Positions 1,254 through 20,785 of a stretch of 64,000 bases of DNA are shown here, one piece after another (position 1 is the stretch's first letter; the number at the start of each line of letters is the position of its first letter). The translations under genes and the position numbers were made by a program. This DNA is from Fidelibacterota bacterium. GTDB taxonomy: Bacteria > Fidelibacterota > Marinisomatia > Marinisomatales > UBA1611. The stretch is taken from the NCBI GenBank assembly GCA_018658715.1, contig JABHUQ010000034.1:22230-86229 (forward strand). Reading direction: 5' to 3'. Under the pieces are notes generated by a model, which had not been told where the DNA came from, ran no database searches, and saw only the letters and a list, made by a program, of their open reading frames with translations.

Positions 1254-1274
1254 TAATTATTTATAACTCTTCGT

Positions 1275-2711: not shown

Positions 2712-2714
2712 ACC

Positions 2715-3455: not shown

Positions 3456-4714
3456 GTCTTTCCCATTTCCAAGCCGAATTTGAAAAAATGATGAATAGAG
3501 ACTATTTTTCATCAAGCATTCATCCAATGCGAAATGAAGCATTTTCAAAGTTTAATGAGTGTGGATTCCCTACACAAAAATGGGAGGATTGGCAATTCAC
3601 AAACCTTACATCATTACAAAAAGATACTTTCCGTATATCCGAATTGAAGGATGGCCCAACACAAAAAATAGATTTATCTCCCTTTCACATAGATAATGTT
3701 GCCAATATTGTTATTTATAACGGACATTTTCAGAAAGATATATCACATTTTCCTTCTGGCATAAACCTAATGTCTGGTTTAGACTATTTAGAATCGAAAG
3801 AATGGAAATATAATAATACATATGATTCACCCTTCGATTTATTAAATACTGCATTTATGGATAGTGGTATGTCAGTTGTAATTGATGAAAATATGACTAT
3901 TAATACTCCTATTCATATGGTATTTATTTCAAATAGCAATGAACCATTAATGGTAAATCCCAGAGTCCATATAGATGTAGGGGATTCAAGTTCTGCAACA
4001 TTTATTGAGCATCATGTTGGCGTTTCTTCATCCTTTTTTGAAAATGGATCTATTTTTATTAATCTAGAACAAAATGCACAATTAAACCATATTCGCATTC
4101 AATCCAATTCAACAAAAACTATTAGTATGGCTAATATACAGGCGGAACAAAGTTTAGATAGTAAATATACCTTTTTTCAATATGCAGATGGAGGCCAATT
4201 AGGGCGATTAAATATGGTTACTCGTTTGAATGGTGAAGGAGCTGATTGTAACTTAAATGGATTAGCTCTCTCTAAAAACAACCAACATTTAGACCATCAT
4301 ATTATAACAGATCATCGTGTGCCCCATTGCACAAGTTCACAAAATTTTAAATCCATTTTACAAGATAAATCTACTGGTGTCTTTTGTGGAAGAACGATTG
4401 TAAGAGAGCAAGCACAAAAAACAGATTCTAAACAATCCAATAAAAATTTACTCTTATCTAAAAATGCCCTTATGAATTCAAACCCACAGTTGGAAATATA
4501 TGCAGACGATGTAAAATGTTCTCATGGGTCTACAACAGGCGAACTTGACCATGAAGCTCTTTTCTATTTACGTTCTCGTGGCATTGATATGATGGAAGCA
4601 AAAAATTTACTGACCCGTGGTTTTGCAAATGAAATCATGAACGCCATTCGACATAATTGCACTCGTTCATTTATTGATACTAAATTTAAACATTGGTTAG
4701 GGGACGAAGTATGA
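3452..4714 (+). CDS. sufD: Fe-S cluster assembly protein SufD
   Basis: The C-terminal half is SufB/D-like (LEIYADDVKCSHGSTTG, EALFYLRSRGI). I prefer start ATG 3452 because it forms an ATGA overlap with the sufC stop; the ORF opens at 3440. Confidence 0.9.
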   Translation: MSLSHFQAEFEKMMNRDYFSSSIHPMRNEAFSKFNECGFPTQKWEDWQFTNLTSLQKDTFRISELKDGPTQKIDLSPFHIDNVANIVIYNGHFQKDISHFPSGINLMSGLDYLESKEWKYNNTYDSPFDLLNTAFMDSGMSVVIDENMTINTPIHMVFISNSNEPLMVNPRVHIDVGDSSSATFIEHHVGVSSSFFENGSIFINLEQNAQLNHIRIQSNSTKTISMANIQAEQSLDSKYTFFQYADGGQLGRLNMVTRLNGEGADCNLNGLALSKNNQHLDHHIITDHRVPHCTSSQNFKSILQDKSTGVFCGRTIVREQAQKTDSKQSNKNLLLSKNALMNSNPQLEIYADDVKCSHGSTTGELDHEALFYLRSRGIDMMEAKNLLTRGFANEIMNAIRHNCTRSFIDTKFKHWLGDEV

Positions 4715-5130
4715 CAACACTTCCAATTGTTCATCTTCTTCAAGATATTCAAGATTTATTCCAATTTTTTGATGACCCAAAAGATAAGTATGCTCAACTC
4801 ATTGATTTTGGGAAAAAATCTCAAGGGCTTCCAGCTGAAGATTTAATAGAAAAAAATCGCATACATGGTTGTGCTTCAAATGCCTTTGTGAAAATAATTC
4901 AAAACGAAGATCAAACCTTTTTAATTCAAACAGATTCTGATGCACTAATTGTAAAAGGGCTATTAACATTATTAGAAAGAATTTTTCACAACCAACATAA
5001 ATCTGAAATTATGTCTATTAATGGAAGTGATTTATTAAACTCTATTGGTTTGGGGAATTCTATTAGTGGGCAACGTAGTAATGGCTTCACAAATGCAGTA
5101 GAAAAAATTCAAAGAGAAATAGCAAAATGA
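4711..5130 (+). CDS. sufE: Cysteine desulfuration (sulfur acceptor) protein SufE
   Basis: YAQLIDFGKK and the conserved-Cys motif IHGCASNAFV. Start ATG 4711 forms an ATGA overlap with the sufD stop; the ORF opens at 4693. Confidence 0.8.
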   Translation: MTTLPIVHLLQDIQDLFQFFDDPKDKYAQLIDFGKKSQGLPAEDLIEKNRIHGCASNAFVKIIQNEDQTFLIQTDSDALIVKGLLTLLERIFHNQHKSEIMSINGSDLLNSIGLGNSISGQRSNGFTNAVEKIQREIAK

Positions 5131-5669
5131 CACATCCAACAGATTCAATTAAACTTACACGAGATGTGGAAGCTCACCTTGTTCCTTCTGGTGAATCTAT
5201 TACTCTACTTAAAGGGGAACTCGTTAGAATCACCCAATCGCTTGGCGGAAATTATACCGTATTAATTAGTGGTAATATGGCTCAAATACGGGATGAAAAT
5301 GCAGATGCTATTGGCTTTAAGTCTCCAAAAGAAGATATATCAAAAAATAAAAATGAACCTTTTACTGAAGGAATGGTTTGGGACCAAATGAAAACATGTT
5401 ATGATCCTGAAATTCCAGTAAATGTAGTGGATCTTGGGCTTATTTATGGATGTGAAATTTCTGAAATGGATGAAGGGAAATTAGTGGCAATCCAAATGAC
5501 ATTAACAGCTCCCGGATGTGGGATGGGACATATCATAGCTGATGAAGTGAAACGAAAAGTGAATGGGATTCAAGGCGTAGATGATGTCAGTGTAGAGTTG
5601 GTTTGGGAACCACAATGGAATCGCGATATGATGACGGTAGAAGCTCGTCTCGAATTAGGATTATATTAA
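5127..5669 (+). CDS. sufT: Long-form SufT-type Fe-S assembly protein (N-terminal domain plus DUF59)
   Basis: The C-terminal half is CYDPEIPVNVVDLGLIY...LTAPGCGMG (DUF59). About 90 aa of N-terminal extension matches the ~175-aa SufT family. ATGA overlap with sufE. Confidence 0.75.
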   Translation: MTHPTDSIKLTRDVEAHLVPSGESITLLKGELVRITQSLGGNYTVLISGNMAQIRDENADAIGFKSPKEDISKNKNEPFTEGMVWDQMKTCYDPEIPVNVVDLGLIYGCEISEMDEGKLVAIQMTLTAPGCGMGHIIADEVKRKVNGIQGVDDVSVELVWEPQWNRDMMTVEARLELGLY

Positions 5670-5673
5670 TTCG

Positions 5674-6867
5674 ATGCCATCCTTTAAATCAGATTTCCCT
5701 GTTTTTTCTCATGACCCATCTTTAGTTTATCTAGATAGTGCTTCAACCACACAAAAACCAAAAATGGTCATAGATGCATTAAATACATTTTATGAAAAAC
5801 AGAATGCAAATGTTCATCGTGCTTTATATAATTTAGGAGAAGAAGCTACTAATGCTTATGAAAATGCACGCAAAATAGTTGCTCAATTCATCAATGCGCC
5901 ATCCGAAAATACTATTATTTTTACAAAAGGCACCACTGAATCAATCAATCTCGTAGCTTATGCATGGGGCAGGAAATATATTCAAACTGGCGATGAAATT
6001 CTCATTACAGAAATGGAACATCATAGCAACTTAATCCCTTGGCAATTATTAGCAAAAGAGACTGGCGCTAAGCTCAAATACATTCCAATGAAAACAGATG
6101 GACTATTAGACCTAAGCCATTTGGATCATTACTTTTCACCCAAAACAAAACTTTTTTCTATGGTGCATCAGTCCAACGTTTTGGGAACACTCAATCCGAC
6201 TGAAATGCTTATCCAAAAAGCAAAAGAAGTTGGAGCAGTTACAGTATTAGATGCAGCCCAAAGTGTACCACATAAGTCAGTTGATTTTCAAAAACTTGGT
6301 TGCGATTTTATGGCTTTTTCTGGGCATAAAATGTTTGGTCCAACAGGTGTAGGTGTTCTTGTTGGAAATATGAAAATACTTGACAAAATGAATCCATTTC
6401 TTGGTGGTGGAGAAATGATCAATAAAGTTACTTTAAAAGAATCAACGTGGAATAATGTCCCGTATAAATTTGAAGCAGGAACACCCAATATCGCCCAAGC
6501 AGTTGGTTTGGGAGTCGCCATTGATTATATGAATAGTATCGGAATGGATACGATTGAATCAATTGAATACGAACTCACTAAATATGCTTTGGAAAAGATG
6601 AAAAATATTGAGGGAATGATCATCTATGGCCCCAAAGATCGTGGGCCGGTAATTAGCTTTAATATAGCTGGGATCCACGCCCATGATTTAGCCACTTTTT
6701 TAAATCAAGATAATATTGCCATTCGAGTTGGCCACCATTGCGCTCAACCAATTATGGATATATTAGGCGTACCATCCACAGCTCGAGTAAGTTTTCATAT
6801 TTATAATTCTAAAAACGATATTGATATATTTTGTCAAGGTCTTGAAACAACAATTACATATTTTTAG
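5674..6867 (+). CDS. sufS: Cysteine desulfurase SufS (PLP-dependent, class II)
   Basis: SASTTQKP, MEHHSN, PLP lysine in FSGHKMFGPTG, catalytic loop RVGHHCAQP. Confidence 0.92.
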   Translation: MPSFKSDFPVFSHDPSLVYLDSASTTQKPKMVIDALNTFYEKQNANVHRALYNLGEEATNAYENARKIVAQFINAPSENTIIFTKGTTESINLVAYAWGRKYIQTGDEILITEMEHHSNLIPWQLLAKETGAKLKYIPMKTDGLLDLSHLDHYFSPKTKLFSMVHQSNVLGTLNPTEMLIQKAKEVGAVTVLDAAQSVPHKSVDFQKLGCDFMAFSGHKMFGPTGVGVLVGNMKILDKMNPFLGGGEMINKVTLKESTWNNVPYKFEAGTPNIAQAVGLGVAIDYMNSIGMDTIESIEYELTKYALEKMKNIEGMIIYGPKDRGPVISFNIAGIHAHDLATFLNQDNIAIRVGHHCAQPIMDILGVPSTARVSFHIYNSKNDIDIFCQGLETTITYF

Positions 6868-6931
6868 GTGCTGGGAAAATGTCATATTTCCATGAACTCA
6901 ATAGGACATTTTTCAATAATCGGACTAAACA

Positions 6932-7189
6932 ATGGCATTAGAGACAATACATTTAAATGATTTTCTAGATGGTGGCATCTTGAGAGAAAAATCGTTTCGG
7001 AAACAAGTGGCAGAATTAGACTGGTCACAGTATACCAATAAGAAAGTAATCATAAAAGGATGCGCTGATGTTCCTGTTCCAACATGGGCTTATTTAATTA
7101 TTACAGCTCATTTATCTCATTTTGCCAAAAAGATTTATTATGGCGAACCAAGATATGCGGTGGAAATCTTTTCTCAAAAAGAATCCTAA
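6932..7189 (+). CDS. DUF2480-like small protein (short form)
   Basis: ILREKSFR...DWSQY...VPTWAYLIITAHL..FAKK resembles my recollection of the DUF2480 core found downstream of suf genes in FCB bacteria. It is only 85 aa. Confidence 0.45.
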   Translation: MALETIHLNDFLDGGILREKSFRKQVAELDWSQYTNKKVIIKGCADVPVPTWAYLIITAHLSHFAKKIYYGEPRYAVEIFSQKES

Positions 7190-7218
7190 TTCATAATCTG
7201 CTTTCATAAATTCATCCC

Positions 7219-7650
7219 ATGGCAGATAAAAAGAACAGAGCAAGTTGGGAACAATATTTTATGAATATTGCTACCGAAGTGGCCACACGATCCACCTGCG
7301 ATCGTAAACATGTTGGGGCTGTAATTGTTCGGGAAAAAACAATTTTATCCACTGGGTATAATGGAAGTATAAAAGGCCTGCCTCACTGTGATGAAGTTGG
7401 TCACGAAATGGTTGATGATCACTGTGTACGGACCACTCACGCAGAAGCAAATGCTATTGTTCAAGCTGCAAAAAATGGTGTTAGTATTAATGGGTCAGAA
7501 ATATATGTAACAGCATCCCCCTGTTATAATTGTTTTAAACTCATTGCTAATTCTGGTATAAAGACAATTTATTTTGATGAGTTTTATCGAGATGAACGCA
7601 TCATAAACCACGCAAAAGAATCGGGTGTTGAATTAGTCGAGATTGACTAG
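7219..7650 (+). CDS. dCMP (deoxycytidylate) deaminase
   Basis: Zinc motifs HAEANAI and PCYNCFKLI. 143 aa. Confidence 0.85.
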   Translation: MADKKNRASWEQYFMNIATEVATRSTCDRKHVGAVIVREKTILSTGYNGSIKGLPHCDEVGHEMVDDHCVRTTHAEANAIVQAAKNGVSINGSEIYVTASPCYNCFKLIANSGIKTIYFDEFYRDERIINHAKESGVELVEID

Positions 7651-7669
7651 TACATCGGAAGTCATTTTG

Positions 7670-9874
7670 ATGATTCCATCTAGCATTCCATTTCTATTCC
7701 GTTTTTTTGTACCAATTTTCCTTTCCATTGCTTCGGCGCAAATTTATGATATATCTATCCCACCCCAAGATGATGATTCTTACGAATATGCAGATTTCAG
7801 GATATACATCAATGATTCGTTAGAAACAATTCGAGGTGTATACTTTTTTATGCACCCTTGGCATGGAGATTCTCGAAATATTGTTAATGACGAAATGTTA
7901 AAAGCGTTATGTGATTCATCTCAATTTGCATTAATGGGTGCTCATTTTGATAATATGCACATGGAAACCGGTGTGGGTGATGCAGTGATTGATGCGATGA
8001 ATGGATTTGTCGAGATGACAGGGAAAACCGAATTAGCCTACACTCCCTTTTTTATAAATGGATATTCTTGGGGTGGTCAATTTGGCTATCATTTTACTGT
8101 TTGGGATCCAGATAGAGTAATTGGTTTTATCACTCAAAAAGGCGGGTACCACGATACAACAGATGCGGGCGATGCCATTTCTGTCCCTGGACTCATGTTT
8201 ATTGGTGAAGATGATTTGGATTATCGTATTACAAATCTCACGGGTGTTTTCTTAAATCACCGACCTATAGGAGCTCAATGGAGTCTTGCAGTAGAACAGG
8301 GGTCAGGGCATTCTCAGGTTCAAGATTGGGATTTATTAAATGCATTTTTCTACCATACAGTTCAACTACGATTACCTGATTCAACAGAATCAAATCATCC
8401 TGTAGAACTATTACCTATCGACAATCAAGATGCTTGGTATGGCGACCAATCAAGTTGGGTGATTGGATCATATGAATGTTATGATGGTGTGGTAGATTCT
8501 TCTTCCTGGTTCCCATCACAAAAAGTGGGCGAACTTTGGCAAAATTTTGCATCAGAAGGAACTGTGGAAGATACGAGTGAATGTGATGGGCCCCAAAATG
8601 TGAGTATACGCATTCCTGCGGAATGGGAGAGCCAGAAAGCAATATGGCTCCAGTGGCCACTTCAATTTGAACATTGGATGCGCCCTGAAATGGCTAACGT
8701 AATTGCCACGGTTCAAACTTTTGAAGATGTACATTTAATAGTACAAAATGAGAGTCATTTAGCCGATGCACAATCACAAGTTCAAGAGCAAGGTGGGAAT
8801 CCATTTAATTTAAATTATCATATATGGGAGCATAACAACGCTTGGCTCCGAGATAATGGCCCACTGTATGTTAAACAAGAAAATGAATTAACTATTCATA
8901 ATATGCAATTTGATTCTTGGGGTGGTTTAGTCCCCAATTATCAAGAAGATAATGCCATACCCTGCACTATTGCTTACGAGCTAGGATTAGATTGTAATAC
9001 ATTGGATTTTATTATGGAAAGAGGAAACCTCGAATTTAATGGCTCCGGAGCTCTTATCACCAATTGGGATTGTTGGGCAGATAGAAACCCAAATTTAGTT
9101 CAAAATGAATTAGATCTTTATTTAAAACAGATATGGGGATTAGATCAAATCGTGTGGACCTATGGACATTCTGAATGGGATGTAACTACTGGCCATATTG
9201 ACGGTGTGGCGCGATTTGTGAATGATTCTACGGTTCTTGTTGGGAATGTTATCAATGCAAATGATCCCGATGCTTGGATATGTGATTCAGCAGCCGTTGT
9301 TATTGAAAATGCAGGATTTAATGTAGTCAGAATGGATATGCCCGGATACATTGATTATTATAATTGGACTATTCCTGCACTTTATCTTAATTACATCATA
9401 GTGGATGGTGCCATCATTGGGAATGCTTATAACGTTCCTGAATGGGATAATGAAGCTCAATCTTTATTAGAAGTATTATTCCCTCGCTATGAAGTCATTT
9501 TATTATACACACCAGAAGTAAATCTTTCTGGAGGTGGGATTCATTGTATTACTAATGATCAGCCTGAAATCATTGATATTTTGAGTATGAAAAATAATAA
9601 TTTACTCCCTTCACAATTTCAACTTCATAACCCCTACCCAAATCCCTTTAATCCAACAACCATCATCCCATTTTCGGTAGAAACGCAGAGTATAGCATCT
9701 CTACAGTTGTACGAAATAACTGGTCGGTTGGTGGAAATATTATTTGATGGTATTCTTGATCCTGGAAATCATAAAATAAAATGGGATGCTTCAGCACAAT
9801 CCAGCGGGATCTATTTTGTTGTCCTAAAAACCCCTAATAAAACATTATTGAAAAAACTGGTTTTATTAAAATAA
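7670..9874 (+). CDS. Secreted three-part protein: alpha/beta-hydrolase-like domain, agmatine deiminase/PAD_porph-family domain, and T9SS C-terminal sorting domain
   Basis: Signal peptide IPFLFRFFVPIFLSIASAQ. GYSWGG nucleophile elbow with later GEDD and GSGHS. Deiminase motifs IPAEWESQKAIWLQWP, NNAWLRDNGP, GHIDG and catalytic GGGIHCITNDQP. CTD YPNPFNPTT...SGIYFVVLK...LVLLK (nt ~9614-9871). The ORF opens at TTG 7643; ATG 7670 is preferred. Confidence 0.8.
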   Translation: MIPSSIPFLFRFFVPIFLSIASAQIYDISIPPQDDDSYEYADFRIYINDSLETIRGVYFFMHPWHGDSRNIVNDEMLKALCDSSQFALMGAHFDNMHMETGVGDAVIDAMNGFVEMTGKTELAYTPFFINGYSWGGQFGYHFTVWDPDRVIGFITQKGGYHDTTDAGDAISVPGLMFIGEDDLDYRITNLTGVFLNHRPIGAQWSLAVEQGSGHSQVQDWDLLNAFFYHTVQLRLPDSTESNHPVELLPIDNQDAWYGDQSSWVIGSYECYDGVVDSSSWFPSQKVGELWQNFASEGTVEDTSECDGPQNVSIRIPAEWESQKAIWLQWPLQFEHWMRPEMANVIATVQTFEDVHLIVQNESHLADAQSQVQEQGGNPFNLNYHIWEHNNAWLRDNGPLYVKQENELTIHNMQFDSWGGLVPNYQEDNAIPCTIAYELGLDCNTLDFIMERGNLEFNGSGALITNWDCWADRNPNLVQNELDLYLKQIWGLDQIVWTYGHSEWDVTTGHIDGVARFVNDSTVLVGNVINANDPDAWICDSAAVVIENAGFNVVRMDMPGYIDYYNWTIPALYLNYIIVDGAIIGNAYNVPEWDNEAQSLLEVLFPRYEVILLYTPEVNLSGGGIHCITNDQPEIIDILSMKNNNLLPSQFQLHNPYPNPFNPTTIIPFSVETQSIASLQLYEITGRLVEILFDGILDPGNHKIKWDASAQSSGIYFVVLKTPNKTLLKKLVLLK

Positions 9875-9919
9875 GATTTCGTAACGACATTCCTAAATAT
9901 TTTATAGATTCGTCCTAGG

Positions 9920-11059
9920 ATGAGTTGGGTTATGATAAGATTTATTTTACTTTTATTGCCAATCTATTTGTTGGCACAAAATAATGTTTGTTTTGACATT
10001 GAAGATAATCCTTATCCCAACCATCCAGCGTTTGGGGTTTTTTCAAAATATGTCAATGTTTTGGGCACTATTGATATTTATGCTGAGTCCAGTATTTCTG
10101 ATGAAAAGATACTTCATGTAGCTGCAGTTACGGCAGAATTATTAGATAATGATGAAGATGGAAATATTGATGATCCGCTGATTGAATCTTCACTAATTGA
10201 ATTGAATACTGTTATGCCGGTGTTCCAGTATGAGAATGGAAATGCCATTGAAACATTTTTTGATAATCTAGATGACGATGGGTGTACTGGTGCTGTATTA
10301 TTCAAAAATGAAATTGATCCAAACCAACCTGGTCATTGGGGAGACGATGCTACAGTGGAAGAAGTATTACACACTATAAACGCATGCGGTCATGTGGAAG
10401 TTTATCCCTCGCTCTACGCACTCTTGCCAAATTCATCTGAATTGACAGATGCCATGGATGTTGCTCGAGGTGGACAATTTATGTCCATTCCAAATCCATA
10501 TCCAGATGAGGCTTGGTATCATTACGATGACTGGACATGTGATTATGAATGTATGGCTATGGAATATTTATATTGGTGCGTCGTCACAAATATGGGCATT
10601 TTAGCAGATACGGAAACGTGTAATGGCATTGCAAACGAGTGGGAACCTTGCAGCCTGGAATTGTTTGAATCTACCGATATATTAATGTTTAATTTGGTTA
10701 CTAATTCTGAAAATAAACTGCCACAACTTGCGCCGGACGGGAATTACTGTACCGAACAGGTGGATACTGATTCTGAAATTATTCCCGGTGATTATCCGCT
10801 ATTATCGCTGTATCCTAATCCTTTCAACCCCACATCTACTATCCAGTTTCATATTGGTATAGAGGCACAGTTTATCTTATCTCTCCTTCAAATAATCGAT
10901 ATTAATGGTCATATTGTGGAAACGTTGGTAAATGGGAAATTGCACCCTGGTGATCATGAAATAAATTGGGATGCCTCGGACTTTCCCAGCGGTGTGTATT
11001 TTGTTCAATTAAAAACGGGGAATAAAATCAAAACTGAGAAAATAATTCTTTTAAAATAA
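9920..11059 (+). CDS. Secreted Cys-rich protein of unknown function with a T9SS C-terminal sorting domain
   Basis: Signal peptide MIRFILLLLPIYLLAQ, many Cys residues, an acidic DNDEDGNIDD loop, and CTD LYPNPFNPTSTIQF...SGVYFVQLK...IILLK (nt ~10790-11056). Confidence 0.75.
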   Translation: MSWVMIRFILLLLPIYLLAQNNVCFDIEDNPYPNHPAFGVFSKYVNVLGTIDIYAESSISDEKILHVAAVTAELLDNDEDGNIDDPLIESSLIELNTVMPVFQYENGNAIETFFDNLDDDGCTGAVLFKNEIDPNQPGHWGDDATVEEVLHTINACGHVEVYPSLYALLPNSSELTDAMDVARGGQFMSIPNPYPDEAWYHYDDWTCDYECMAMEYLYWCVVTNMGILADTETCNGIANEWEPCSLELFESTDILMFNLVTNSENKLPQLAPDGNYCTEQVDTDSEIIPGDYPLLSLYPNPFNPTSTIQFHIGIEAQFILSLLQIIDINGHIVETLVNGKLHPGDHEINWDASDFPSGVYFVQLKTGNKIKTEKIILLK

Positions 11060-11080
11060 TGGATACTTAAGAGGCTTTTA

Positions 11081-12418
11081 ATGCCAAAACTCACGCTACT
11101 CCCAGATAATAAAGTTATTGAAGTCGAAAGTGGAACACAATTATTGCAGGCTGCGCTTGATGAAGGTATTCATCATGCTCATGCATGCGGTGCTATGGGG
11201 AAATGCACAACTTGCCGTGTCTTAGTATTAGATGGATATAATAATTGTTCTTCACCTACAGATTATGAACTGAAACTTAAGGAAAAAATCCACTCCAACC
11301 AGGAATTCCGTCTTGCATGTCAAACAAAAATTTTAGGTGATATGGTTGTTAGGCGACTTGTTTTAGACTCTGAAGATATAGAAATGACGTCACAAACCAA
11401 TGCTGTACCCATTGGTCGGTTGGGCGAAACTAAAAAATTAGCTATTTTATTTTGTGATATTAGAGGATTTACACCCTTTGCTGAAAAAATCACACCATAT
11501 GACACCGTTTTCATTTTAAATCGTTATTTTAATCGGATGGTAAATGTAATTGAATCTTATGGTGGTCGAGTTGATAATTACATTGGAGACGGATTAATTG
11601 CATTATTCGGAATAAACAATGAACCTGACGCGGCTGTTTCTGCTGTCCAATCCGCTATTGAAATGTGCACAGAAATGGATGAAATGAAACCTTATCTCAA
11701 AACCATGTATGGTGATGCGTTTAATATTGGCATTGGAGTTCATTATGGTGATGCAGTTGTTGGGGATATTGGTTCAGGAAGATCAAAACGATTAACGGCT
11801 ATTGGGGATTCAGTCAATTTTGCCAGTCGCGTAGAAAGCGCCAATAAACAGTTTCATTCTAGGCTACTCATTTCAGAAGATACTCACAACATTGTTAAAG
11901 ATATGGTGAAAATCAAAGATTTTGTTAGAACAAATATTAAGGGGATTGAAGAAAGAGTAACTTTATACGAGGTAGAAGAAGTAACGGCTGACGTTGGTAA
12001 AATTGAAAAGAGTGAATTTATTGAAAATGGACTGATTTGGCGAAAAGTGAATACAGTATCAAGCTTTGATGACGAACCTCATCAGATATTAAAGGTAAAA
12101 AGAGACAAAATTCTCGTTGCAAAATGCAATAATGAAATTGTAGCAATGAATGACCAATGCCCCCACGCCTTTCTCAGTATGAAAGGTAGTGAAATAGATC
12201 TAAGTGAAAATAAAATTAATTGCAGGTGGCATAATAGTAGTTTTTGCTTACAGTCTGGTGAAATTAAGGAATGGATTGATGATGGTATGTTTAAGTTCAT
12301 GGGAAGGTTAGATTCAAGGGCAAAAGAAATAGTAGAATTGGAAAAAAGAAATCTAGATCTATTCACAACTAAGGTCATTGATGACACCGTTTGGGTTGGG
12401 ATGGATCCGGAATACTAA
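11081..12418 (+). CDS. Three-domain signalling protein: [2Fe-2S] ferredoxin domain, class III adenylate/guanylate cyclase domain, and Rieske [2Fe-2S] domain
   Basis: Fer2: CGAMGKCTTC...LAC. Cyclase: LAILFCDIRGFTPFAEK, YIGDGLIALFG, IGIGVHYGDAVVGDIGS, IGDSVNFASRVES. Rieske: CPH-x18-CRWH followed by SSFCLQSGE and VIDDTVWV. Confidence 0.85.
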   Translation: MPKLTLLPDNKVIEVESGTQLLQAALDEGIHHAHACGAMGKCTTCRVLVLDGYNNCSSPTDYELKLKEKIHSNQEFRLACQTKILGDMVVRRLVLDSEDIEMTSQTNAVPIGRLGETKKLAILFCDIRGFTPFAEKITPYDTVFILNRYFNRMVNVIESYGGRVDNYIGDGLIALFGINNEPDAAVSAVQSAIEMCTEMDEMKPYLKTMYGDAFNIGIGVHYGDAVVGDIGSGRSKRLTAIGDSVNFASRVESANKQFHSRLLISEDTHNIVKDMVKIKDFVRTNIKGIEERVTLYEVEEVTADVGKIEKSEFIENGLIWRKVNTVSSFDDEPHQILKVKRDKILVAKCNNEIVAMNDQCPHAFLSMKGSEIDLSENKINCRWHNSSFCLQSGEIKEWIDDGMFKFMGRLDSRAKEIVELEKRNLDLFTTKVIDDTVWVGMDPEY

Positions 12419-12436
12419 TTATTAAGGAATTTTAAA

Positions 12437-13081
12437 ATGAATAAAAAAACTTGGTTTTTCTTAGTATTGCTTCTTGGGGCATCTCTAATGGGGCAGCATA
12501 TTTCTCAAGGTGATATACTCAGCGAAACTCCTTTATATCCCGTCCCTGTAGATATGACATTCGAAGAATATCAAGATATGAATCGTAGACTTACAATTGG
12601 TTTAGCTTTATCTTCCGTCCCAATTCCTGGAATTATTCACCAATATGCAGGAGAAAAGAAAACGGCTAAAAAATTGAGGATGATAGGAGCAGGTGGTTTA
12701 ATTACTATGATTGCAGGTGGGATCATGATGGAAGAAAAAGGATGGGCCGATTCTCCGTATGAAATTTTTACTTTAAATGAAGGACAAGAAAATGAAAAAC
12801 GGTATGAAAAAATCCCCATCAATCAATTCGGTGATGATGTTGGGTATAACCTTGTTCCATTAAATAAAGAGAGTGAAGGATCGGGTGGCGGTCTCATTGT
12901 TTTAGGCGCTACTGTTTTAATCTGTGATATTTTGTATGATTGGCTTCATGGATGGAAAACTATTGTCCATAAAAGAGATGCAGTACGATATAAATATGGT
13001 CAACAATTACTATTTTCTGTAGCACCAGAAATAGACCCTTCATCAAATTTTGCCGGTTTAAATTTTAATTTATATTTCTAA
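12437..13081 (+). CDS. Hypothetical membrane protein with signal peptide and Gly-rich hydrophobic segments
   Basis: MNKKTWFFLVLLLGASLMGQ signal-like N-terminus. Hydrophobic stretches MIGAGGLITMIAGGIMM and GGGLIVLGATVLICDIL. It starts 18 nt after the cyclase gene. I recognise no family. Confidence 0.6.
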   Translation: MNKKTWFFLVLLLGASLMGQHISQGDILSETPLYPVPVDMTFEEYQDMNRRLTIGLALSSVPIPGIIHQYAGEKKTAKKLRMIGAGGLITMIAGGIMMEEKGWADSPYEIFTLNEGQENEKRYEKIPINQFGDDVGYNLVPLNKESEGSGGGLIVLGATVLICDILYDWLHGWKTIVHKRDAVRYKYGQQLLFSVAPEIDPSSNFAGLNFNLYF

Positions 13082-13293
13082 TCCAACGAGGATATCAATT
13101 AATACATTATAATTTCATATGTGGGGATATTTCTCTGGCGACCAGCTACGTACGGTTTACCATTATACCTAAAATGGCCAATAAATTAAGAAAATTCACA
13201 TTTTAATAACCCTTTAGATTTATTAATAGGCATACTGATTAGTGAAATGAGTATATATTTTCATCTCCATTCTTATGTCTAGTAAATTGTATC

Positions 13294-15132
13294 ATGCATA
13301 ATCCTGCTCTTACTGTTGGCCTTGCAATGGCTATAGGAATGGCTGCTCAGGTCATAGCTCGACATATTCGTATTCCCGGCATTGTACTATTACTTGCTTC
13401 TGGAATGCTTTTTGGCCCCGATGTCCTTAATTGGATTCAACCAGAAAGTTTAGGTGAATCATTACACATTATAGTTGGTTTTGCTGTTGCTGTCATTCTT
13501 TTTGAAGGAGGAATGAATCTTAAATTCAGTCGAATTAAGAGAGAAGGACGGTCCATTCAAGGGCTTATTACTTTAGGTGCACTTATTACATTTGTTGGCG
13601 GGACGCTAAGTGCTAAACTTTTGTTGGGATGGGATTGGCGGGTAGCAATTTTATTTGGAACGTTAGTTATTGTAACAGGGCCCACTGTCATCTCTCCATT
13701 ATTAAAGCGTATTCGAGTCCATCATTCTGTCAGTGTTATTTTAGAAGCTGAAGGAATTTTACTCGATGCTATTGGAGCAATTATTGCAGTAGTTGCACTG
13801 GAAATAGCTATTAGTCCGTCTGGGCTGAGTTTCATCTTTGGCATTTGGCATATTCTTACCAGGCTTGTCGTGGGAACTCTTCTAGGTTTAATAGGTGGAT
13901 TTGTCATGAGTTTTATTCTTCGATTTCGCAATCTTGTTTCCGACGGATTAGAAAATGTGTTTATTTTGTCATGGGTTTTTGCTTTATTTCAAATTTCGAA
14001 TACAATTAGTCCGGAAAGTGGCATAGCAGCCGTTACATTTGCAGGAATGGTTTTGGGGAATTCAAAAACATATATCCATCGGGAATTATTAGAATTTAAA
14101 GAACAGTTGACTGTACTTATGATTGGCATGTTATTTGTCATACTAGCAGCAGATGTTAGAATTGCTGAAATTCAATCTCTTGGTATAAAGGGCCTTATGA
14201 CTGTTTTCGCATTAATGTTTATTATTCGCCCATTGAGTGTTTTTATTTCTACTTCTGCCAGTTCACTAAATATGAAACAAAAAACATTAATATCATGGAT
14301 TGCACCACGAGGGATTGTAGCTGCCGCTGTAGCATCCTTTTTTGCATTTGAGTTAAATCTTCATGGTTATGAAGGGAGCCAATTAAGAGCGCTTGTTTTT
14401 CTCGTCATTATGATTTCTGTATTATTTGCAGGATTCACCGGAGGATTAGCCGCATCAATGTTATCTCTGAAGCGGAAAAAAGAATCAGGATGGATTATTC
14501 TTGGGGCCCATGGTGTGGCTCGTTGTCTTGCTCAAATTTTAAAACGTAACGGACAGGAAGTGATATGTATCGATGAAAATCCGCGCGCCTGTAATCAAGC
14601 TGAGAATGAAGGCATTAAGGTATTTTATGGAAATGCACTTGAAGAGCGGGTATTGCAACAAGCCGAACCAGGGACACGTAAAGGGATTATTGCCTTATCA
14701 GGTAATGAAGAAGTGAATTTTATTTTCTCTCAACGAGCCAAATATTTAGAAAAAAATATGACAATTCTTACAGGGATTAAAAATAGATCAGAAGGTATTA
14801 CTCGAAAAATGGTAATGGAAACGGGAGCACGCATACCCTTTGGACGTGCTGCTGATATGGAACAATGGAGTCAATGGCTTCGTCAAGATTCTGCAACATG
14901 TCAAAATTATATTTACCCTGAATCTAAACAAGATCATGAAATATCAGATCCAAATATGATTGGTATTCTTCTTCCACTTACTATTCGTAGAGGAAAATCC
15001 ATAGAACCCATTGACAATCTGTATAAACCAAAAGAAAAGGATATTGTTTATTTTCTGATCAATAAACAAAAACACGAAGAAGCTAATTCATGGCTTCAAA
15101 CCCATAATTGGTTAAAGAATCCTCCAACTTAA
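13294..15132 (+). CDS. Cation:proton antiporter (CPA1/NhaP-like) with a C-terminal RCK/TrkA-N-like domain
   Basis: About 400 aa of multi-TM sequence (FEGGMNL, ILEAEGILLDAIGAI, SWIAPRGIVAAAVA), then the Rossmann-like ILGAHGVARCLAQILKRNGQEVICID. Confidence 0.85.
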   Translation: MHNPALTVGLAMAIGMAAQVIARHIRIPGIVLLLASGMLFGPDVLNWIQPESLGESLHIIVGFAVAVILFEGGMNLKFSRIKREGRSIQGLITLGALITFVGGTLSAKLLLGWDWRVAILFGTLVIVTGPTVISPLLKRIRVHHSVSVILEAEGILLDAIGAIIAVVALEIAISPSGLSFIFGIWHILTRLVVGTLLGLIGGFVMSFILRFRNLVSDGLENVFILSWVFALFQISNTISPESGIAAVTFAGMVLGNSKTYIHRELLEFKEQLTVLMIGMLFVILAADVRIAEIQSLGIKGLMTVFALMFIIRPLSVFISTSASSLNMKQKTLISWIAPRGIVAAAVASFFAFELNLHGYEGSQLRALVFLVIMISVLFAGFTGGLAASMLSLKRKKESGWIILGAHGVARCLAQILKRNGQEVICIDENPRACNQAENEGIKVFYGNALEERVLQQAEPGTRKGIIALSGNEEVNFIFSQRAKYLEKNMTILTGIKNRSEGITRKMVMETGARIPFGRAADMEQWSQWLRQDSATCQNYIYPESKQDHEISDPNMIGILLPLTIRRGKSIEPIDNLYKPKEKDIVYFLINKQKHEEANSWLQTHNWLKNPPT

Positions 15133-16874
15133 ATAAGATTACTTATATACTCTTTTAAATCTATGGGGGCTACGATGCGCTCTGCATGCCCATATTTTTC
15201 CAACCAACTTGTTGTTTGAAAATCTGGTGATGTTTTTTTACCGGTATATTGTTCAATAACCCTTTTCCCAGAAAACCCAATATGTCCTGCATTCTCTTCA
15301 AATAATTGTATCCCGCGAGATGCCATTCCAATGGCGACACCTCCAAGTGTTGGGTCTGTAATAAGAGTAATTACAGGGAGTCCGGCACGCTCTACTCTAG
15401 AAAGTGCTACATGCACTTTTGGAATACTTACCATGGACGAACATCCTTCATGCATTCTAGCTCCACCACCAGCAGCCTGAATAATTAGTGGTGCTTTTTG
15501 TTCGATTGCTTTTATTGCAGCTTGCCATATCTTTTCCCCAATACTCATACAAAAAGATGCACCTAAAAATCCAAAATCAGTGACACACACTACAATATTT
15601 TTACCCATTAAAGTAGCATCCCCGGTCATCATTGCAGACATCATCCCGGTATTTTTTCTAGCTTTAATTAGTTTATCTGGATAATTAGGAAATGATAATA
15701 TATCTTTATCGAGTATGTATCTCGTTTCAGTATGTTCTTTGAATGTATCTTTATCAACAATCCAGGCGAGATAGTCCCATGCTGAAGGTCGAACAATTCG
15801 TTTCCTACATGTTTGGCATACAAAATTATTTTGTTCTAGAAACTCTAATCGAACGGGGTCATACACATGATTCCCTTGTTCATCATAACACCCTCGATGA
15901 CGTTTCACATACCCTGACTCATTTGATTTTGGTAACCGTGATATTGGACGCTGAACAGAAGTAATATCATTATTAGTCCTTTTTTCCCATTGCCCTATTT
16001 TCTCCCATCGTTTTACGCGCTCATCAAAAATTGTTTCTTTAGGTTGGTTTGATAAATTGCGGAGATGTTTCTGAATTATATTCTTAGCTGACGCAAGAGC
16101 AGATTCTTTAAATCGATGTGCAGGTCCTTCTGGTTCAGGAATTAATTCATCCACAATGCCATGATGAAATCCTTCTCTAGATGTAATTTGGGACACTTCA
16201 GCCGCTTCATTGGCTCGAGACCGTGTATGAAATAATATGGAAGAGCATGCCTCTGGCGTAATGACTAAATAAGTTGAATATTCCATAGCAAGTGTTACAT
16301 CACACCCAGTTAATGCAATGGCTCCGCCAGAACATGCTCGATTCATAATAACAGCCATTGTAGAAACGCTAGCGTCAGCTAAAGCATGAATTGTATCTCC
16401 AATTCGCCAAGCAATTCCATTAGACTCTGACCGCTCTGTTGGGTCAGCACCAGGTGTATCCACAAAAATAATAATGATACGATTTTCTTCTTCCGCAAGT
16501 TTGATTGCCTTTACTGCGCGCTCATAAGAATAAGGAACAGGCATTCCCTGATTCCATTTCTCTACAGCATCAGGATCTTTTAATGTATCCATTATTTTTT
16601 GATAATTAGATGAAGGGCCACTTTGTTGACCTAAGAGCATCACGGGGTTTCCATCTAATGAAGCTCGGTGTGTTTGTATTAAACATGCCCCAAATTGATC
16701 ATCACCAAAGACTTCTTCTACATCAGAAAAAAAGGATCTGTAATTTTTATACTTTGGGCGTTCTGGGTGAAAAGATAATTCATATTTTTCATATTCAGAT
16801 AATTGGGAAATAGCTTCTTGGGTATATGAAAAAAGCTCGTCTTTTTCAAATGATAAGGAAAAATGGTTACTCAT
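15129..16874 (-). CDS. Fused carboxyltransferase with an AccA-like N-terminal half and an AccD-like C-terminal half (acetyl-CoA carboxylase CT type)
   Basis: The N-half aligns by eye to E. coli AccA (HPERPKY, IIIFVDTPGADP, CSGGAIAL, YLVITPEACSSIL, IPEPEGPAH). The C-half aligns to AccD (CQTCRKRI, FGFLGASFCMSIGEKI, AAGGGARMHEG, LITDPTLGGVA, IGFSGKRVIEQ). Confidence 0.8.
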   Translation of the reverse strand: MSNHFSLSFEKDELFSYTQEAISQLSEYEKYELSFHPERPKYKNYRSFFSDVEEVFGDDQFGACLIQTHRASLDGNPVMLLGQQSGPSSNYQKIMDTLKDPDAVEKWNQGMPVPYSYERAVKAIKLAEEENRIIIIFVDTPGADPTERSESNGIAWRIGDTIHALADASVSTMAVIMNRACSGGAIALTGCDVTLAMEYSTYLVITPEACSSILFHTRSRANEAAEVSQITSREGFHHGIVDELIPEPEGPAHRFKESALASAKNIIQKHLRNLSNQPKETIFDERVKRWEKIGQWEKRTNNDITSVQRPISRLPKSNESGYVKRHRGCYDEQGNHVYDPVRLEFLEQNNFVCQTCRKRIVRPSAWDYLAWIVDKDTFKEHTETRYILDKDILSFPNYPDKLIKARKNTGMMSAMMTGDATLMGKNIVVCVTDFGFLGASFCMSIGEKIWQAAIKAIEQKAPLIIQAAGGGARMHEGCSSMVSIPKVHVALSRVERAGLPVITLITDPTLGGVAIGMASRGIQLFEENAGHIGFSGKRVIEQYTGKKTSPDFQTTSWLEKYGHAERIVAPIDLKEYISNLI

Positions 16875-16905
16875 GAAGGGTAATTATAACACAAAAATAA
16901 ATAGT

Positions 16906-18942
16906 TTAGGAAGAATGGTTTATCTGTTTCTCATTTAAACCTTCTAATACTAATTCAGCCACATCTTTCACAACCATGTTATCTTCATGTCCTGTGACTT
17001 TTAATCCATCTTCCATCATTATATTGCAGAAATTACATGCTGTTGCGACTGTGGAGGCTTTTGTATTAGCGGCTTCTTTAAAACGTTCATGATTGATTCT
17101 ATCACCGGTATTGATTTCATACCACATATTACCGCCACCCGCACCACAACAAAATCCAGATTCTTTATTGCGCTCCATTTCAATCAGTTTCCCTTCACTA
17201 AGCACTGATTGGATTAACTCTCGGGGCGCATCATATTCTCCATTATGCCTCCCTAAATAACATGCATCATGATATGTTACATCTTCTGTGACTGATGGTT
17301 GGGGTGAAATTTTCCCTTCTTTAACCAAGTCATTAATATATTGAGAATGGTGAACCACATCTAATTCTATTCCCAATTCAGCATAATCATGTTTAAGAGT
17401 CGTTAAACAATGTGGGCATTGTGTTACAATTTTTTTAATTCCGTATTCTTCAAACTTCTCAATATTTTGCATAGCCATCATTTGAAATAAATATTCATTT
17501 CCGATTCGTCTAGCAGAATCTCCCGTACAGATTTCTTCATTCCCTAAACAAGCATAATCTACACCTGCTTTATCTAATATTTGGCTAACAGCACGAGAAA
17601 TATCTTTTCCACGATTATCATAAGCACCAGAACATCCAGCCCAATATAGAACATCTGCTGTCTTCTTTTCTCGCATCAACGGAACATTTAAACCTTCCAT
17701 CCATGCTTCTCGTTCTTGAGGAGATAATCCCCAAGGATTACCGTAGTTTTCCATTTTATTAAATGCATCCATAGCATCTTCTGGAAAACGACTTTCCATC
17801 ATGACTAAATCCTGACGAATACGCAATATATCCACCATAGGTTCATTCCCAACAGGACAAACTTCAACACAGAAACCACATGTGGTACATGACCAAGCAG
17901 CTTCTTCTGTTAACATCCATTTCGTTATTGGGTCATCTAGTTCTTTCCCTATGGAAAAATCATTTAAATGTTCATTTAGATAATAGCGTTTATTGATTTC
18001 AATTGCAGAAGGAGACAATTCTTTCCCAGTCGAATATGCGGGACAAGCATCTTGACATCGACTACACATAATGCATGCATATGCATCCAAAATTTGGGAT
18101 TGGGTTAAATGTTCGAGTCTAGAAGATCCAAATTGTTCAATATCATCATCTTCAAAATCAATTGATTCCAAAACAGCTGGTGACCGACGCTCTTCTCTTG
18201 CCATATAATTCAATGGTCCCATAAATAAATGAGCATGTTTGGAATAGGGAAAATATGGAATAAAAGCAAGAATCAATCCTAAAGCCAACCACCAACATAC
18301 ATGTTCCATATAGATAATAGTTACAGGATCAAATGATTGCCATAACCATGCCAATAAATTCGCTCCAGGTTGGAATGGATCTGGCCCATGACCTGCAATT
18401 TCAAATGAAGCACCCACAAACCGGAATCCAATATGCATGAGAATGAACATTCCTACAATAAATGAATCTTTTTTCATCCCTGTACGGGCAGCTTCACTTA
18501 CAAGAACGGGATCGTTCGTTTTTAACTTTGGGTCATTAGAAATAAATCGACGAGCGACAAAATATTTGACACCAATAATGACAAATATGCTGAATAAATC
18601 AACAAAAATACGATAAAGTTTTCCAATCCACTGCTCATGAAAAAAATGAAACCCAGGAATAAAACCGTAAAGAACATCAATAATATTAACAGCAATGTAA
18701 AATGAAAATCCCCAAGCAACAATTGCATGTATTCCACCTACAATTGGACGTGTTTTAAATAATGTTTGTTGCCCTAGAAACACAGCCAACCCTTTTGGCC
18801 AATTTCTGATAGTTTCTTTCCACTGTATCGGTCGAGATCCTCGGCCAATCGCTTTGAACATTTTCCCAAAATTCTTCCAAGCGAGTCCTGTTGAACCCAC
18901 AGCTAGAAGAAGAAAAACAATTTTTTCTATAAGGGAGAGCAA
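16906..18942 (-). CDS. Membrane-bound Fe-S oxidoreductase (N-terminal multi-TM domain, 2x[4Fe-4S], two CCG domains; HdrD/GlpC-like). Putative ETF:quinone oxidoreductase.
   Basis: The hydrophobic N-terminal ~240 aa is followed by CIMCSRCQDACP and CTTCGFCVEVCP, then the cysteine-rich CCG-type motifs CPHC and FCCGAGGG. It lies immediately downstream of etfBA. Confidence 0.8.
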   Translation of the reverse strand: MLSLIEKIVFLLLAVGSTGLAWKNFGKMFKAIGRGSRPIQWKETIRNWPKGLAVFLGQQTLFKTRPIVGGIHAIVAWGFSFYIAVNIIDVLYGFIPGFHFFHEQWIGKLYRIFVDLFSIFVIIGVKYFVARRFISNDPKLKTNDPVLVSEAARTGMKKDSFIVGMFILMHIGFRFVGASFEIAGHGPDPFQPGANLLAWLWQSFDPVTIIYMEHVCWWLALGLILAFIPYFPYSKHAHLFMGPLNYMAREERRSPAVLESIDFEDDDIEQFGSSRLEHLTQSQILDAYACIMCSRCQDACPAYSTGKELSPSAIEINKRYYLNEHLNDFSIGKELDDPITKWMLTEEAAWSCTTCGFCVEVCPVGNEPMVDILRIRQDLVMMESRFPEDAMDAFNKMENYGNPWGLSPQEREAWMEGLNVPLMREKKTADVLYWAGCSGAYDNRGKDISRAVSQILDKAGVDYACLGNEEICTGDSARRIGNEYLFQMMAMQNIEKFEEYGIKKIVTQCPHCLTTLKHDYAELGIELDVVHHSQYINDLVKEGKISPQPSVTEDVTYHDACYLGRHNGEYDAPRELIQSVLSEGKLIEMERNKESGFCCGAGGGNMWYEINTGDRINHERFKEAANTKASTVATACNFCNIMMEDGLKVTGHEDNMVVKDVAELVLEGLNEKQINHSS

Positions 18943-18948
18943 GTGTAT

Positions 18949-19917
18949 TTATCCGTTAATAGCTTCCGTTAGTTTAGGGACAATTTCTAATATATTACCA
19001 ACAACACCATAATCTGCTATTTCAAAAATAGGGGCATCAGCATCTTTATTAATAGCAATAATATTTTTTGACCCTTTCATACCTACAACATGTTGTATTG
19101 CTCCAGAAATACCCAACGCAATATATAAATTTGGAGAAACAGATTGGCCTGAACTTCCTACTTGATGAGACGATGGTAACCATCCAGCATCTACAACAGG
19201 CCTCGATGAAGCCAATTCGCCATTTATAGCAGACGCAAGATCTTTAACTATTTGAAGATTATTCTCTTTTTCAATTCCTCGTCCCACGCTGACAATTAAA
19301 TCAGCGCTTGATAAATCAATTCCACTCACTTCTTCTTGGATTGGTGCTTCGGATGAAGTTCTAACTTGACTTGACTCTAATTCAATATCAAATGATCTAG
19401 TAGAAGCAGAGCCGGATTCAATATTTTCTTCTGAGAATGCCGCTGCCTGGAAACTGATTAAAGTACACTCCGAATCATTCGATACCACTTTTGACCCCAA
19501 TTTCCCGTTATACACAGTCTTGGTGAATACAAAGAAGTCACCTTCTTTCATTAATGAAACGACATCTGGTATAAAAGGTTTGTCTATACGAGCACTTACT
19601 TTGGGGAAATAATCTCTTGTTTGATATGTATGTCCTACAAATACTAAGCTTGGATTTTCCTTTTCTATTACTTGCTTTACACATTCAGCAAAACCATCTG
19701 CACTGTAAGTAGACAATAAATTATGATTCGCGACCAATACTTCATCCAAATTCATTCCTGAAACAGACGAAGCTATTTGGTCTGTATCAATCCCAATAGC
19801 TAGAGCAGAAATACTTAGCCCATTCTCTGCTGCAATTGATTGAGCTCCAACGATTGCTTCACGACTCATGCGATGAAGAGATCCATTCTTTGATTCTAAT
19901 ACAACTAAAATATCCAT
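18949..19917 (-). CDS. etfA: Electron transfer flavoprotein alpha subunit
   Basis: C-terminal FAD-binding motif SRPVVDAGWLP...QVG.SGQ.V.P.LYIALGISGAIQH..G. 322 aa. Confidence 0.9.
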   Translation of the reverse strand: MDILVVLESKNGSLHRMSREAIVGAQSIAAENGLSISALAIGIDTDQIASSVSGMNLDEVLVANHNLLSTYSADGFAECVKQVIEKENPSLVFVGHTYQTRDYFPKVSARIDKPFIPDVVSLMKEGDFFVFTKTVYNGKLGSKVVSNDSECTLISFQAAAFSEENIESGSASTRSFDIELESSQVRTSSEAPIQEEVSGIDLSSADLIVSVGRGIEKENNLQIVKDLASAINGELASSRPVVDAGWLPSSHQVGSSGQSVSPNLYIALGISGAIQHVVGMKGSKNIIAINKDADAPIFEIADYGVVGNILEIVPKLTEAING

Positions 19918-19926
19918 GATAATCCT

Positions 19927-20697: not shown

Positions 20698-20785
20698 GGG
20701 GAGTGTCCTTTCTTGTAATATTGCAAAATAGTGATAAATTTAACGGGTAAAGTTAATGTTTTTCCCTTAAAGAGTCTTTCAAATT

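Follow-up and report, generated by a model that had tools for sequence, protein, structure and literature searches.

The 64,000-nucleotide stretch of DNA analysed here (the window) lies on contig JABHUQ010000034.1 of the Fidelibacterota bacterium assembly GCA_018658715.1 (positions 22,230 to 86,229 of the forward strand). It carries an unbroken open reading frame (ORF), running from ATG to a stop codon on the forward strand, for a protein of 445 residues in which a class III nucleotide cyclase homology domain (CHD) is set between an N-terminal [2Fe-2S] ferredoxin domain (Fer2) and a C-terminal Rieske [2Fe-2S] module (Table 1); the reverse strand of the same segment is rich in stop codons. The gene is real and conserved in the abundant marine group Marinimicrobia (SAR406), and it belongs to a much larger Fer2-cyclase family, in which the same core is joined to varied redox modules. 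The architecture and the capacity to bind the cofactors are very likely. Judged from its sequence, the enzyme is most likely a soluble class IIIb-type nucleotide cyclase acting as a homodimer, and the protein is probably a redox sensor of a novel kind.

Table 1. Coordinates of the cyclase gene, its parts and selected neighbouring genes within the 64,000-nucleotide window
Feature	Positions	Strand	Residues	Basis or remark
Whole gene, Fer2 - class III cyclase - Rieske protein, 445 aa	11081..12418 (including stop codon)	+	1-445	ORF, translation
N-terminal [2Fe-2S] ferredoxin domain, adrenodoxin/ISC-type Cys spacing	11081..11365	+	1-95	Pfam Fer2 (PF00111)
Pfam match Fer2			7-84	E 4.8e-12, 46.1 bits, cut-off 21
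Fer2 ligand codons	C36 11186-11188; C42 11204-11206; C45 11213-11215; C80 11318-11320	+
Fer2-to-cyclase linker, short	11366..11422	+	96-114	Conserved RRLVxDxxD(I) motif at start
Class III (IIIb-like) cyclase homology domain	11423..11980	+	115-300	Pfam, PDB matches, fold
Pfam match Guanylate_cyc (PF00211)			117-296	E 3.4e-21, 76.1 bits, cut-off 21.9
Metal Asp codons	D126 11456-11458; D170 11588-11590	+
Specificity-pair codons	N166 11576-11578; T239 11795-11797	+
Transition-state residue codons	N246 11816-11818; R250 11828-11830	+
Cyclase-to-Rieske tether, poorly conserved	11981..12037	+	301-319	20% mean identity to query, lowest segment
C-terminal Rieske [2Fe-2S] module, Rieske-ferredoxin type	12038..12415	+	320-445	Pfam, PDB matches
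Pfam match Rieske (PF00355)			320-397	E 3.4e-10, 40.2 bits, cut-off 20.3
Rieske ligand codons	C360 12158-12160; H362 12164-12166; C381 12221-12223; H384 12230-12232	+
Family-specific insertion after Rieske box II, ~39 residues	12239..12355	+	387-425	Invariant W398, A414
suf Fe-S assembly cluster, complete, Rrf2-family regulator first	128..6867	+		4-11 kb upstream of cyclase; order Rrf2 128-532, FeS_assembly_P 529-894, SufA-like 885-1253, SufB, SufC, SufD, SufE 4693-5130, second FeS_assembly_P 5127-5669, SufS 5674-6867
Type IX secretion-sorted proteins (Por_Secre_tail)	7643..9874; 9920..11059; 20940..22847	+		C-terminal sorting domains
Fused alpha/beta acetyl-CoA carboxylase carboxyltransferase, 581 aa	15129..16874	-		ACCA + Carboxyl_trans
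CCG / 4Fe-4S dicluster oxidoreductase, 678 aa	16906-18942	-
Electron-transfer flavoprotein (ETF), alpha subunit	18949-19917	-
ETF, beta subunit	19927-20697	-

The three-module layout had been proposed in a first-pass annotation made by reading the sequence, and it was borne out by a Pfam scan, in which the three domains all scored above their curated gathering thresholds. The scan returned nothing beyond Fer2, Guanylate_cyc and Rieske, and the maximum 19-residue Kyte-Doolittle mean was 0.94, in agreement with the proposed lack of any transmembrane (TM) segment or further sensor domain. All of the motifs quoted at that stage were found (FCDIRGFT, IGDGLIALFG, GVHYGDAVVGDIG, IGDSVNFASRVES, SSFCLQSGE and DDTVWV), and the Cys/His spacings were as given, namely C36-x5-C42-x2-C45-x34-C80 in the ferredoxin domain and C360-P-H362-x18-C381-R-W-H384 in the Rieske module.

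An index of the assembly collection lists the identical protein in 206 blocks, from which 24 contigs were read, and one 110-kb scaffold encoding it keeps the same neighbours as the window. A homologue search revealed more than 100 clusters (90% identity) of 443-452 residues that are 53-80% identical to the query and carry the same three Pfam domains. Those with an organism name come from Candidatus Marinimicrobia or from unclassified bacterial metagenome-assembled genomes (MAGs), and annotation pipelines label them as 'adenylate/guanylate cyclase domain-containing protein' or with strings of COG names. With so many independent contigs coding for the identical sequence, and with so many clusters alike in length and domains, an assembly chimera or a frameshift was ruled out. 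All eight cluster ligands as well as D126, D170, N246 and R250 are invariant in the 118 full-length family members (53-80% identity), which upholds the complete ligand and catalytic sets claimed earlier. Thus, none of the sequence-level faults that the first-pass annotation had named as fatal was found: profile support is present, the ligands are conserved in relatives and the gene is no chimera. Mean identity to the query is 72% in the cyclase, 61% in Fer2 and 46% in the Rieske segment, and falls to its minimum in the tether between the last two modules of the chain.

The solved chain closest to the ferredoxin domain is E. coli Fdx (1I7H; E 2e-12), with which all four Cys align as Cys. These residues are invariant both in the family (118/118) and in representatives of the wider Fer2-cyclase family (131/131), and the domain is predicted from them to hold a [2Fe-2S] cluster. 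Against the NCBIfam model fdx_isc (TIGR02007) it reached 51.9 bits, far under the equivalog cut-off of 132.1, and is therefore regarded as a fused relative rather than an orthologue of the iron-sulfur cluster (ISC) ferredoxin. Around the junction with the cyclase, R91, R92, L93, L95, D99 and I100 are invariant in the family alignment, and in the 131 representatives, which span many phyla, the RRLVxDxxD motif is kept, as is a distance from C80 to D126 of mostly 43-47 residues. The AlphaFold2 (AF2) model places an 8-residue helix (97-104) followed by coil at this junction and predicts no long coiled-coil or helical transducer between Fer2 and the cyclase domain.

The Rieske ligands are likewise invariant (118/118) and are kept in a stand-alone Rieske paralogue and in distant three-domain relatives, at 32-43% identity. 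The closest solved chains are the ferredoxins BphA3, BphF, TodB and CarAc. Neither of the two Rieske boxes, CPHAFL and CRWHNS, contains a second Cys. In high-potential Rieske proteins of the bc1/b6f type, a second Cys in each box forms a disulfide (CTHLGC / CPCHGS), and this type was ruled out by the box sequences together with the nearest solved relatives. Since the disulfide Cys are missing, Phe388 matches a Phe of the solved Rieske ferredoxins and these nearest relatives are of low potential, the module is assigned to the low-potential type, and the expected potential gap to an adrenodoxin/ISC-type ferredoxin is therefore modest. On sequence grounds, the gap between the two clusters is thus probably modest, and the earlier description of two clusters with very different potentials was probably overstated. 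The insertion that follows box II was modelled by AF2 with a pLDDT (predicted local distance difference test) of 32-41, although its pairwise identity within the family is 78%; it is also present in the stand-alone paralogue and in distant relatives.

Stand-alone Rieske genes (134-153 aa) were found, singly or in twos, directly downstream of the cyclase in 16 Marinimicrobia loci (L008, at 9353..9769, L007, L010-L016, L018-L021, L023, L030 and L031), with a tandem pair at L023 and L030. Their products share 40% identity with the fused module along its full length, insertion included. They are absent from the lineage of the window itself (window, L001 and L003-L006). One MAG, NAT52 (NZWG01), holds two syntenic cyclase loci, one with (L019) and one without (L022) a stand-alone Rieske gene; either the bin mixes strains or the locus is truly duplicated.

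The cyclase domain gave PDB sequence matches to Cya2 (2W01; E 2e-27) and CyaB (3R5G; E 1e-26), and a Foldseek search with the predicted model superposed it on Cya2 with a TM-score of 0.88 and a root-mean-square deviation of 1.8 Å, CyaB and CyaC (1WC0) coming next. The residues that define a class III nucleotidyl cyclase, D126, D170, N246 and R250, are present and aligned with those of Cya2 and CyaB, and they recur in nearly all wider-family representatives (D126 in 129/131, D170 in 130/131, N246 in 131/131 and R250 in 127/131). Thr in place of Asp at the second specificity position reportedly marks class IIIb in the classification of Linder and Schultz, and T239 matches the Thr of CyaB (RLT239AIG opposite DYTIIG in the HMMER alignment). 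The first specificity position, which holds Lys in adenylyl and Glu in guanylyl cyclases, is taken by Asn166 (VDN166YIGDG opposite IDEFMGDG of Cya2 and IDKFVGD of CyaB), so that the pairing of Asn with Thr, originally read by eye, is supported by profile alignment. The N166/T239 pair is invariant in the 118 family members. In the wider family, Lys (73/131) and Asn (31/131) occupy the first position and Thr mostly the second (107/131), the pairs being Lys-Thr in 70/131, Asn-Thr in 22/131 and other combinations in the rest. Asn is commoner in Rieske-bearing members (6/9 versus 25/122; Fisher p 0.006, uncorrected for phylogeny).

As the family is class IIIb and mostly Lys-Thr, cAMP is the likeliest product and is probably the one made; the prediction is uncertain because the invariant Asn166 replaces the adenine-specifying Lys. 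The reading that the enzyme is redox-regulated and yields cGMP, a pyrimidine cyclic nucleotide monophosphate (cNMP) or another nucleotide product is compatible with the model developed below and is, in our estimate, rather unlikely. It draws on the invariance of N166, on the enrichment of Asn beside a Rieske module, on the guanylyl cyclase Cya2 as the best solved sequence match and on PADLOC PycC models scoring up to 88.7 bits. Against it, general homology among cyclase domains accounts for the PycC scores, the protein lacks the Glu/Gly pair of Cya2, and Thr239 of the adenylyl Lys-Thr pair prevailing in the wider family is kept. Furthermore, Rv1900c of M. tuberculosis, which presumably has Asn at the same position, is taken to be mainly an adenylyl cyclase nonetheless.

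In total, 227 loci coding for a relative were counted in GTDB species representatives, and the comparisons made here rest on the best 80 of them. Among these 80, full-length three-domain matches occur only in Marinimicrobia/Neomarinimicrobiota MAGs and single-amplified genomes and in unclassified marine MAGs (L001-L032). The next-best loci match residues 1-298 only, that is Fer2 plus cyclase, at 40-51% identity, and belong to Acidobacteriota, cyanobacteria (Microcoleus, Tychonema), Anaerolineae, Polyangium, Gallionella, Dadabacteria and Actinomycetota. A HMMER search over 1.84 billion representatives returned 993 clusters (50% identity) at E<=1e-30. Nearly all of the best 150 of these 993 have the Fer2-CHD core, and about nine of the same 150 carry a C-terminal Rieske module; one Rieske-bearing cluster has 160 members, including the Pseudomonadota MAG protein MDA0320304.1. 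Other arrangements were also recovered. Four CDGSH [2Fe-2S] motifs accompany Fer2-CHD-Rieske in P0122 (347 members), the Rieske module stands at the N-terminus of the core in P0220, and a C-terminal haem peroxidase domain (PF00141) is attached to it in P0134 from Leptospira fluminis (WP_135813298.1). Many further forms of ~540 residues are candidate peroxidase fusions. Relatives of the P0184/P0260 type have N-terminal anchors of 5-6 TM helices with His within the helices, and those of the P0153/P0147 type have a soluble, Cys-rich N-terminal region without a Pfam match. On several Joint Genome Institute contigs of the P0131 cluster, the three-domain gene appears as two ORFs, one for an 'adenylate cyclase' of 235 aa and one for a Rieske protein of 169-199 aa, which could be due to frameshifts, sequencing errors or genuine gene fission.

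In the window, the cyclase gene is co-directional with its neighbours, separated from them by gaps of 21 nt and 18 nt, and a promoter/terminator scan at the gene revealed nothing above background. Two of the three type IX secretion-sorted proteins lie upstream of it, the first of which (7643..9874) also has a PAD_porph (Porphyromonas-type peptidyl-arginine/agmatine deiminase) domain; these proteins are consistent with an origin of the window in the FCB group (Marinimicrobia). Downstream follows a 214-aa membrane protein, unmatched in Pfam, and then a Na+/H+ exchanger that contains a TrkA_N domain. Most other Marinimicrobia loci show the order pyridoxal phosphate enzyme, 1060-aa secreted protein, glyoxalase/VOC, cyclase, then sometimes a stand-alone Rieske gene, a small protein, a DUF5683 protein and a type IX secretion-sorted protein. 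The glyoxalase/VOC-family gene (~139 aa) thus stands directly upstream of the cyclase in most of the loci L001-L032. By sequence inspection, a glyoxalase-II-like hydrolase of the metallo-β-lactamase fold is directly upstream in the Anaerolineae/Chloroflexota loci L060-L075 and three genes downstream in L005. These neighbours may be coincidence or may point to a link with methylglyoxal or thiol stress. No CRP-like cNMP receptor was found in the window or the fetched flanks by regular expression and by phmmer with E. coli CRP, which is a weak test, and no oxygenase or reductase gene was found near the cyclase in the window or the Marinimicrobia loci. Further along the window, the reverse-strand genes at 16906..20697 look like an ETF-linked Fe-S oxidoreductase unit, beside which the fused carboxyltransferase is encoded. 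Scans of the full 64 kb (1..64000) detected neither tRNA genes nor, at gathering score, any Rfam family, and the G+C content is 32-39% throughout.

The poorly conserved tether, the stand-alone and N-terminal forms of the Rieske module and the other modules found on the same core together suggest that Fer2 and CHD form a fixed unit whose redox partners are loosely attached and interchangeable. The fusions of this core to a haem-b-like anchor, CDGSH, haem peroxidase or an N-terminal Rieske module also lend indirect support to the putative redox gating of cNMP output put forward in the first-pass annotation. In the model that we infer, which extends from cluster binding and dimerisation to redox control, the direction of electron flow and the product, Fer2 would act on the cyclase dimer as the proximal redox switch, with the Rieske module as an exchangeable electron module; we assign this overall mechanism a probability of roughly 0.5. 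The cyclase domains would pair head to tail in the usual homodimer, whose interface would hold two active sites. Fer2, whose short linker of conserved length runs into the first strand of the catalytic domain, would pack against that domain, and the oxidation state of its cluster would shift the packing of the catalytic domains, tip the dimer towards activity or inactivity and hence alter cNMP synthesis. The Rieske module on its loose tether would act as an exchangeable input or output partner, trading electrons with the Fer2 cluster and with an external donor or acceptor, and would thereby determine what is sensed, be it a particular redox pool or an oxidant such as O2 or H2O2. The potential of a Rieske ferredoxin usually lies above that of an adrenodoxin-type ferredoxin. 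If this order holds here, electrons would therefore tend to pass from Fer2 to Rieske, and it is the latter that would face O2 or an acceptor, as the oxidising side. The cNMP output would then reflect how electron supply is balanced against oxidant. Marinimicrobia live across oxygen gradients, and such an output would, if the model is correct, be useful to them.

Several observations weigh against this mechanism. The conserved Fe-S ligands fit sensing by cluster loss or a purely structural role equally well, box II of the Rieske module is atypical (CRWHN, not CPxHG), and the Asn at the Lys position makes the product uncertain on sequence grounds. The AF2 model of the 445-aa protein reached a predicted TM-score of only 0.58, and a crude neighbour-joining tree, built to test for a single origin of the Rieske fusion, does not recover the Rieske-bearing members as monophyletic. 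In addition, the genes beside the cyclase are lineage-specific, and none that would encode a redox partner, a cNMP receptor or a phosphodiesterase is conserved across phyla.

One alternative is that the protein senses cluster integrity, the signal being, in place of reversible electron transfer, the loss, damage or non-assembly of one or both [2Fe-2S] clusters upon exposure to O2, NO or reactive oxygen species, or upon iron or sulfur limitation, altering cyclase activity. The Fe-S regulators FNR, IscR and NsrR work by cluster integrity, and, apart from the ligand conservation, the low confidence of the AF2 cluster loops, modelled without cofactor, would suit this explanation, as would the complete suf operon with its Rrf2 regulator upstream of the gene. 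The suf neighbourhood is, however, not kept in 32 other Marinimicrobia loci, which makes the linkage look fortuitous; a functional link between the cyclase and the suf operon was rejected. The [2Fe-2S] clusters of ferredoxins and Rieske proteins are generally sturdier than the [4Fe-4S] clusters of O2 sensors, and the repeated fusion of the core to haem-b anchor, CDGSH and peroxidase modules points to electron flow. We consider the integrity sensor unlikely.

Alternatively, the Fe-S domains could be non-regulatory, serving structure or dimerisation or acting as a separate electron carrier, with the cyclase constitutive or controlled otherwise (by bicarbonate, pH or a partner protein). The conservation of the Fer2-CHD junction, in motif and in length, across phyla would be hard to explain in this case and therefore argues for functional coupling, as does the attachment of at least five different redox modules to the same core. 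Class IIIb enzymes are often bicarbonate-responsive, but the Lys that we take to be tied to bicarbonate activation is Asn here. The missing transducer helix between Fer2 and the cyclase and the lack of a conserved, functionally linked neighbour are what this explanation has in its favour, and it is judged distinctly unlikely. A Pycsar-type antiphage cyclase, brought to mind by matches to 12 PADLOC PycC models (best E 1e-25) and by the small membrane protein encoded directly downstream, was rejected as hardly credible, since no TIR or cNMP-binding effector was found among the neighbours in the window and flanks, the 214-aa protein has no Pfam match, therefore no cNMP-binding domain, and is not consistently adjacent, the cyclase is syntenic throughout the phylum and not a sporadic island gene, and the PycC matches reflect the shared fold.

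Returning to the redox-switched cyclase, its most far-reaching form would be a first Fe-S-gated nucleotide cyclase, in which an intramolecular electron relay between ferredoxin and Rieske clusters sets class III activity, possibly with a product other than cAMP; this we put forward tentatively, at somewhat below even odds. Class III cyclases take light, gas, pH, bicarbonate and ligand inputs via PAS, GAF, BLUF, H-NOX, globin and membrane domains. If the proposal is correct, one of the most abundant bacterial lineages of the dark ocean and of oxygen-minimum zones would make a cyclic nucleotide the direct readout of redox or O2 status, and the protein would belong to a broad signalling superfamily, as yet uncharacterised, with a Fer2-cyclase core and plug-in Rieske, CDGSH, haem peroxidase or haem-b anchor modules. 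Being soluble, small (445 aa) and highly conserved, it would be well suited to testing whether redox state controls cNMP synthesis. It would also give entry to the large family of 993 clusters, including the membrane haem-b/ferredoxin cyclases predicted in 2016 and the Leptospira peroxidase fusions, and a handle on the sensing of oxygen or redox gradients by uncultured Marinimicrobia.

Compared part by part, the ferredoxin domain shares the C-x5-C-x2-C-x34-C spacing with the ISC/adrenodoxin-type ferredoxins (E. coli Fdx 1I7H, putidaredoxin, adrenodoxin), among which it has its best PDB and NCBIfam matches; unlike ISC ferredoxins, it is fused and has its own family motif, CGGxxRCsTCR...RLACQ. 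The Rieske module has the CxH...CxxH ligands in common with the Rieske ferredoxins of ring-hydroxylating dioxygenases (BphA3 2E4P, BphF 1FQT, TodB 3DQY, CarAc 1VCK), as well as the absence of the disulfide Cys and a Phe after box II (Phe388 here), and BphA3 carries a Cys at the position matching C389. This kinship is weak (E 2e-4 at best), and the CRWHN box II, the insertion of ~39 residues and the fusion to a cyclase set the module apart. The catalytic domain shares its fold (TM-score 0.82-0.88), the two metal-binding Asp and the transition-state Asn/Arg with the class IIIb domains of Cya2 (Synechocystis guanylyl cyclase), CyaB (P. aeruginosa) and CyaC (Spirulina), with Thr at the second specificity site as in CyaB, whereas the first site holds Lys (adenylyl) or Glu (guanylyl) in these enzymes and Asn here. 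The regulatory domains of Cya2, CyaB and CyaC are of the GAF/PAS, MASE, CHASE and similar types, in place of which two Fe-S domains are found here.

The closest precedent for the whole protein comes from Beltz et al. 2016 (PMC4821796), who described ferredoxin-associated class IIIb cyclases with a membrane anchor, known by sequence analysis only, such as Q132R4 of Rhodopseudomonas palustris. Their 6TM anchors are cytochrome-b-like, with four His and two haems predicted, and resemble the di-haem cytochrome b of fumarate reductase/succinate dehydrogenase (PMC4821796). A [2Fe-2S] ferredoxin directly N-terminal to the class IIIb domain is the arrangement found here as well, and the membrane-anchored Fer2 cyclases were recovered as relatives with ~36-42% identity over Fer2 plus CHD and the same conserved junction. 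In contrast to those membrane proteins, which have the predicted di-haem anchor and no Rieske module, the present protein is soluble, with a C-terminal Rieske module; it has no hydrophobic segment and begins with the ferredoxin domain. The Fer2-CHD core is thus already known at the sequence level, while the soluble Rieske-bearing form is uncharacterised. A full-text literature search of limited coverage, in which the paper by Beltz et al. was the only relevant one, gave no characterised Fe-S-containing cyclase, in line with the claim of the first-pass annotation that no cyclase of this architecture had been characterised, and within that coverage no description was found of the soluble Fer2-CHD-Rieske form or of the CDGSH, peroxidase and N-terminal Rieske fusions. 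We know of no characterised case of an Fe-S-regulated nucleotide cyclase. Cofactor-based sensors are familiar from SoxR and AirS ([2Fe-2S]), from the H-NOX domain of soluble guanylyl cyclase and from globin-coupled cyclases. The sensor parts of these systems are not homologous to the domains of the Fer2/Rieske cyclase, but the proposed logic would be alike by analogy, with a redox-active metal cofactor controlling an output domain.

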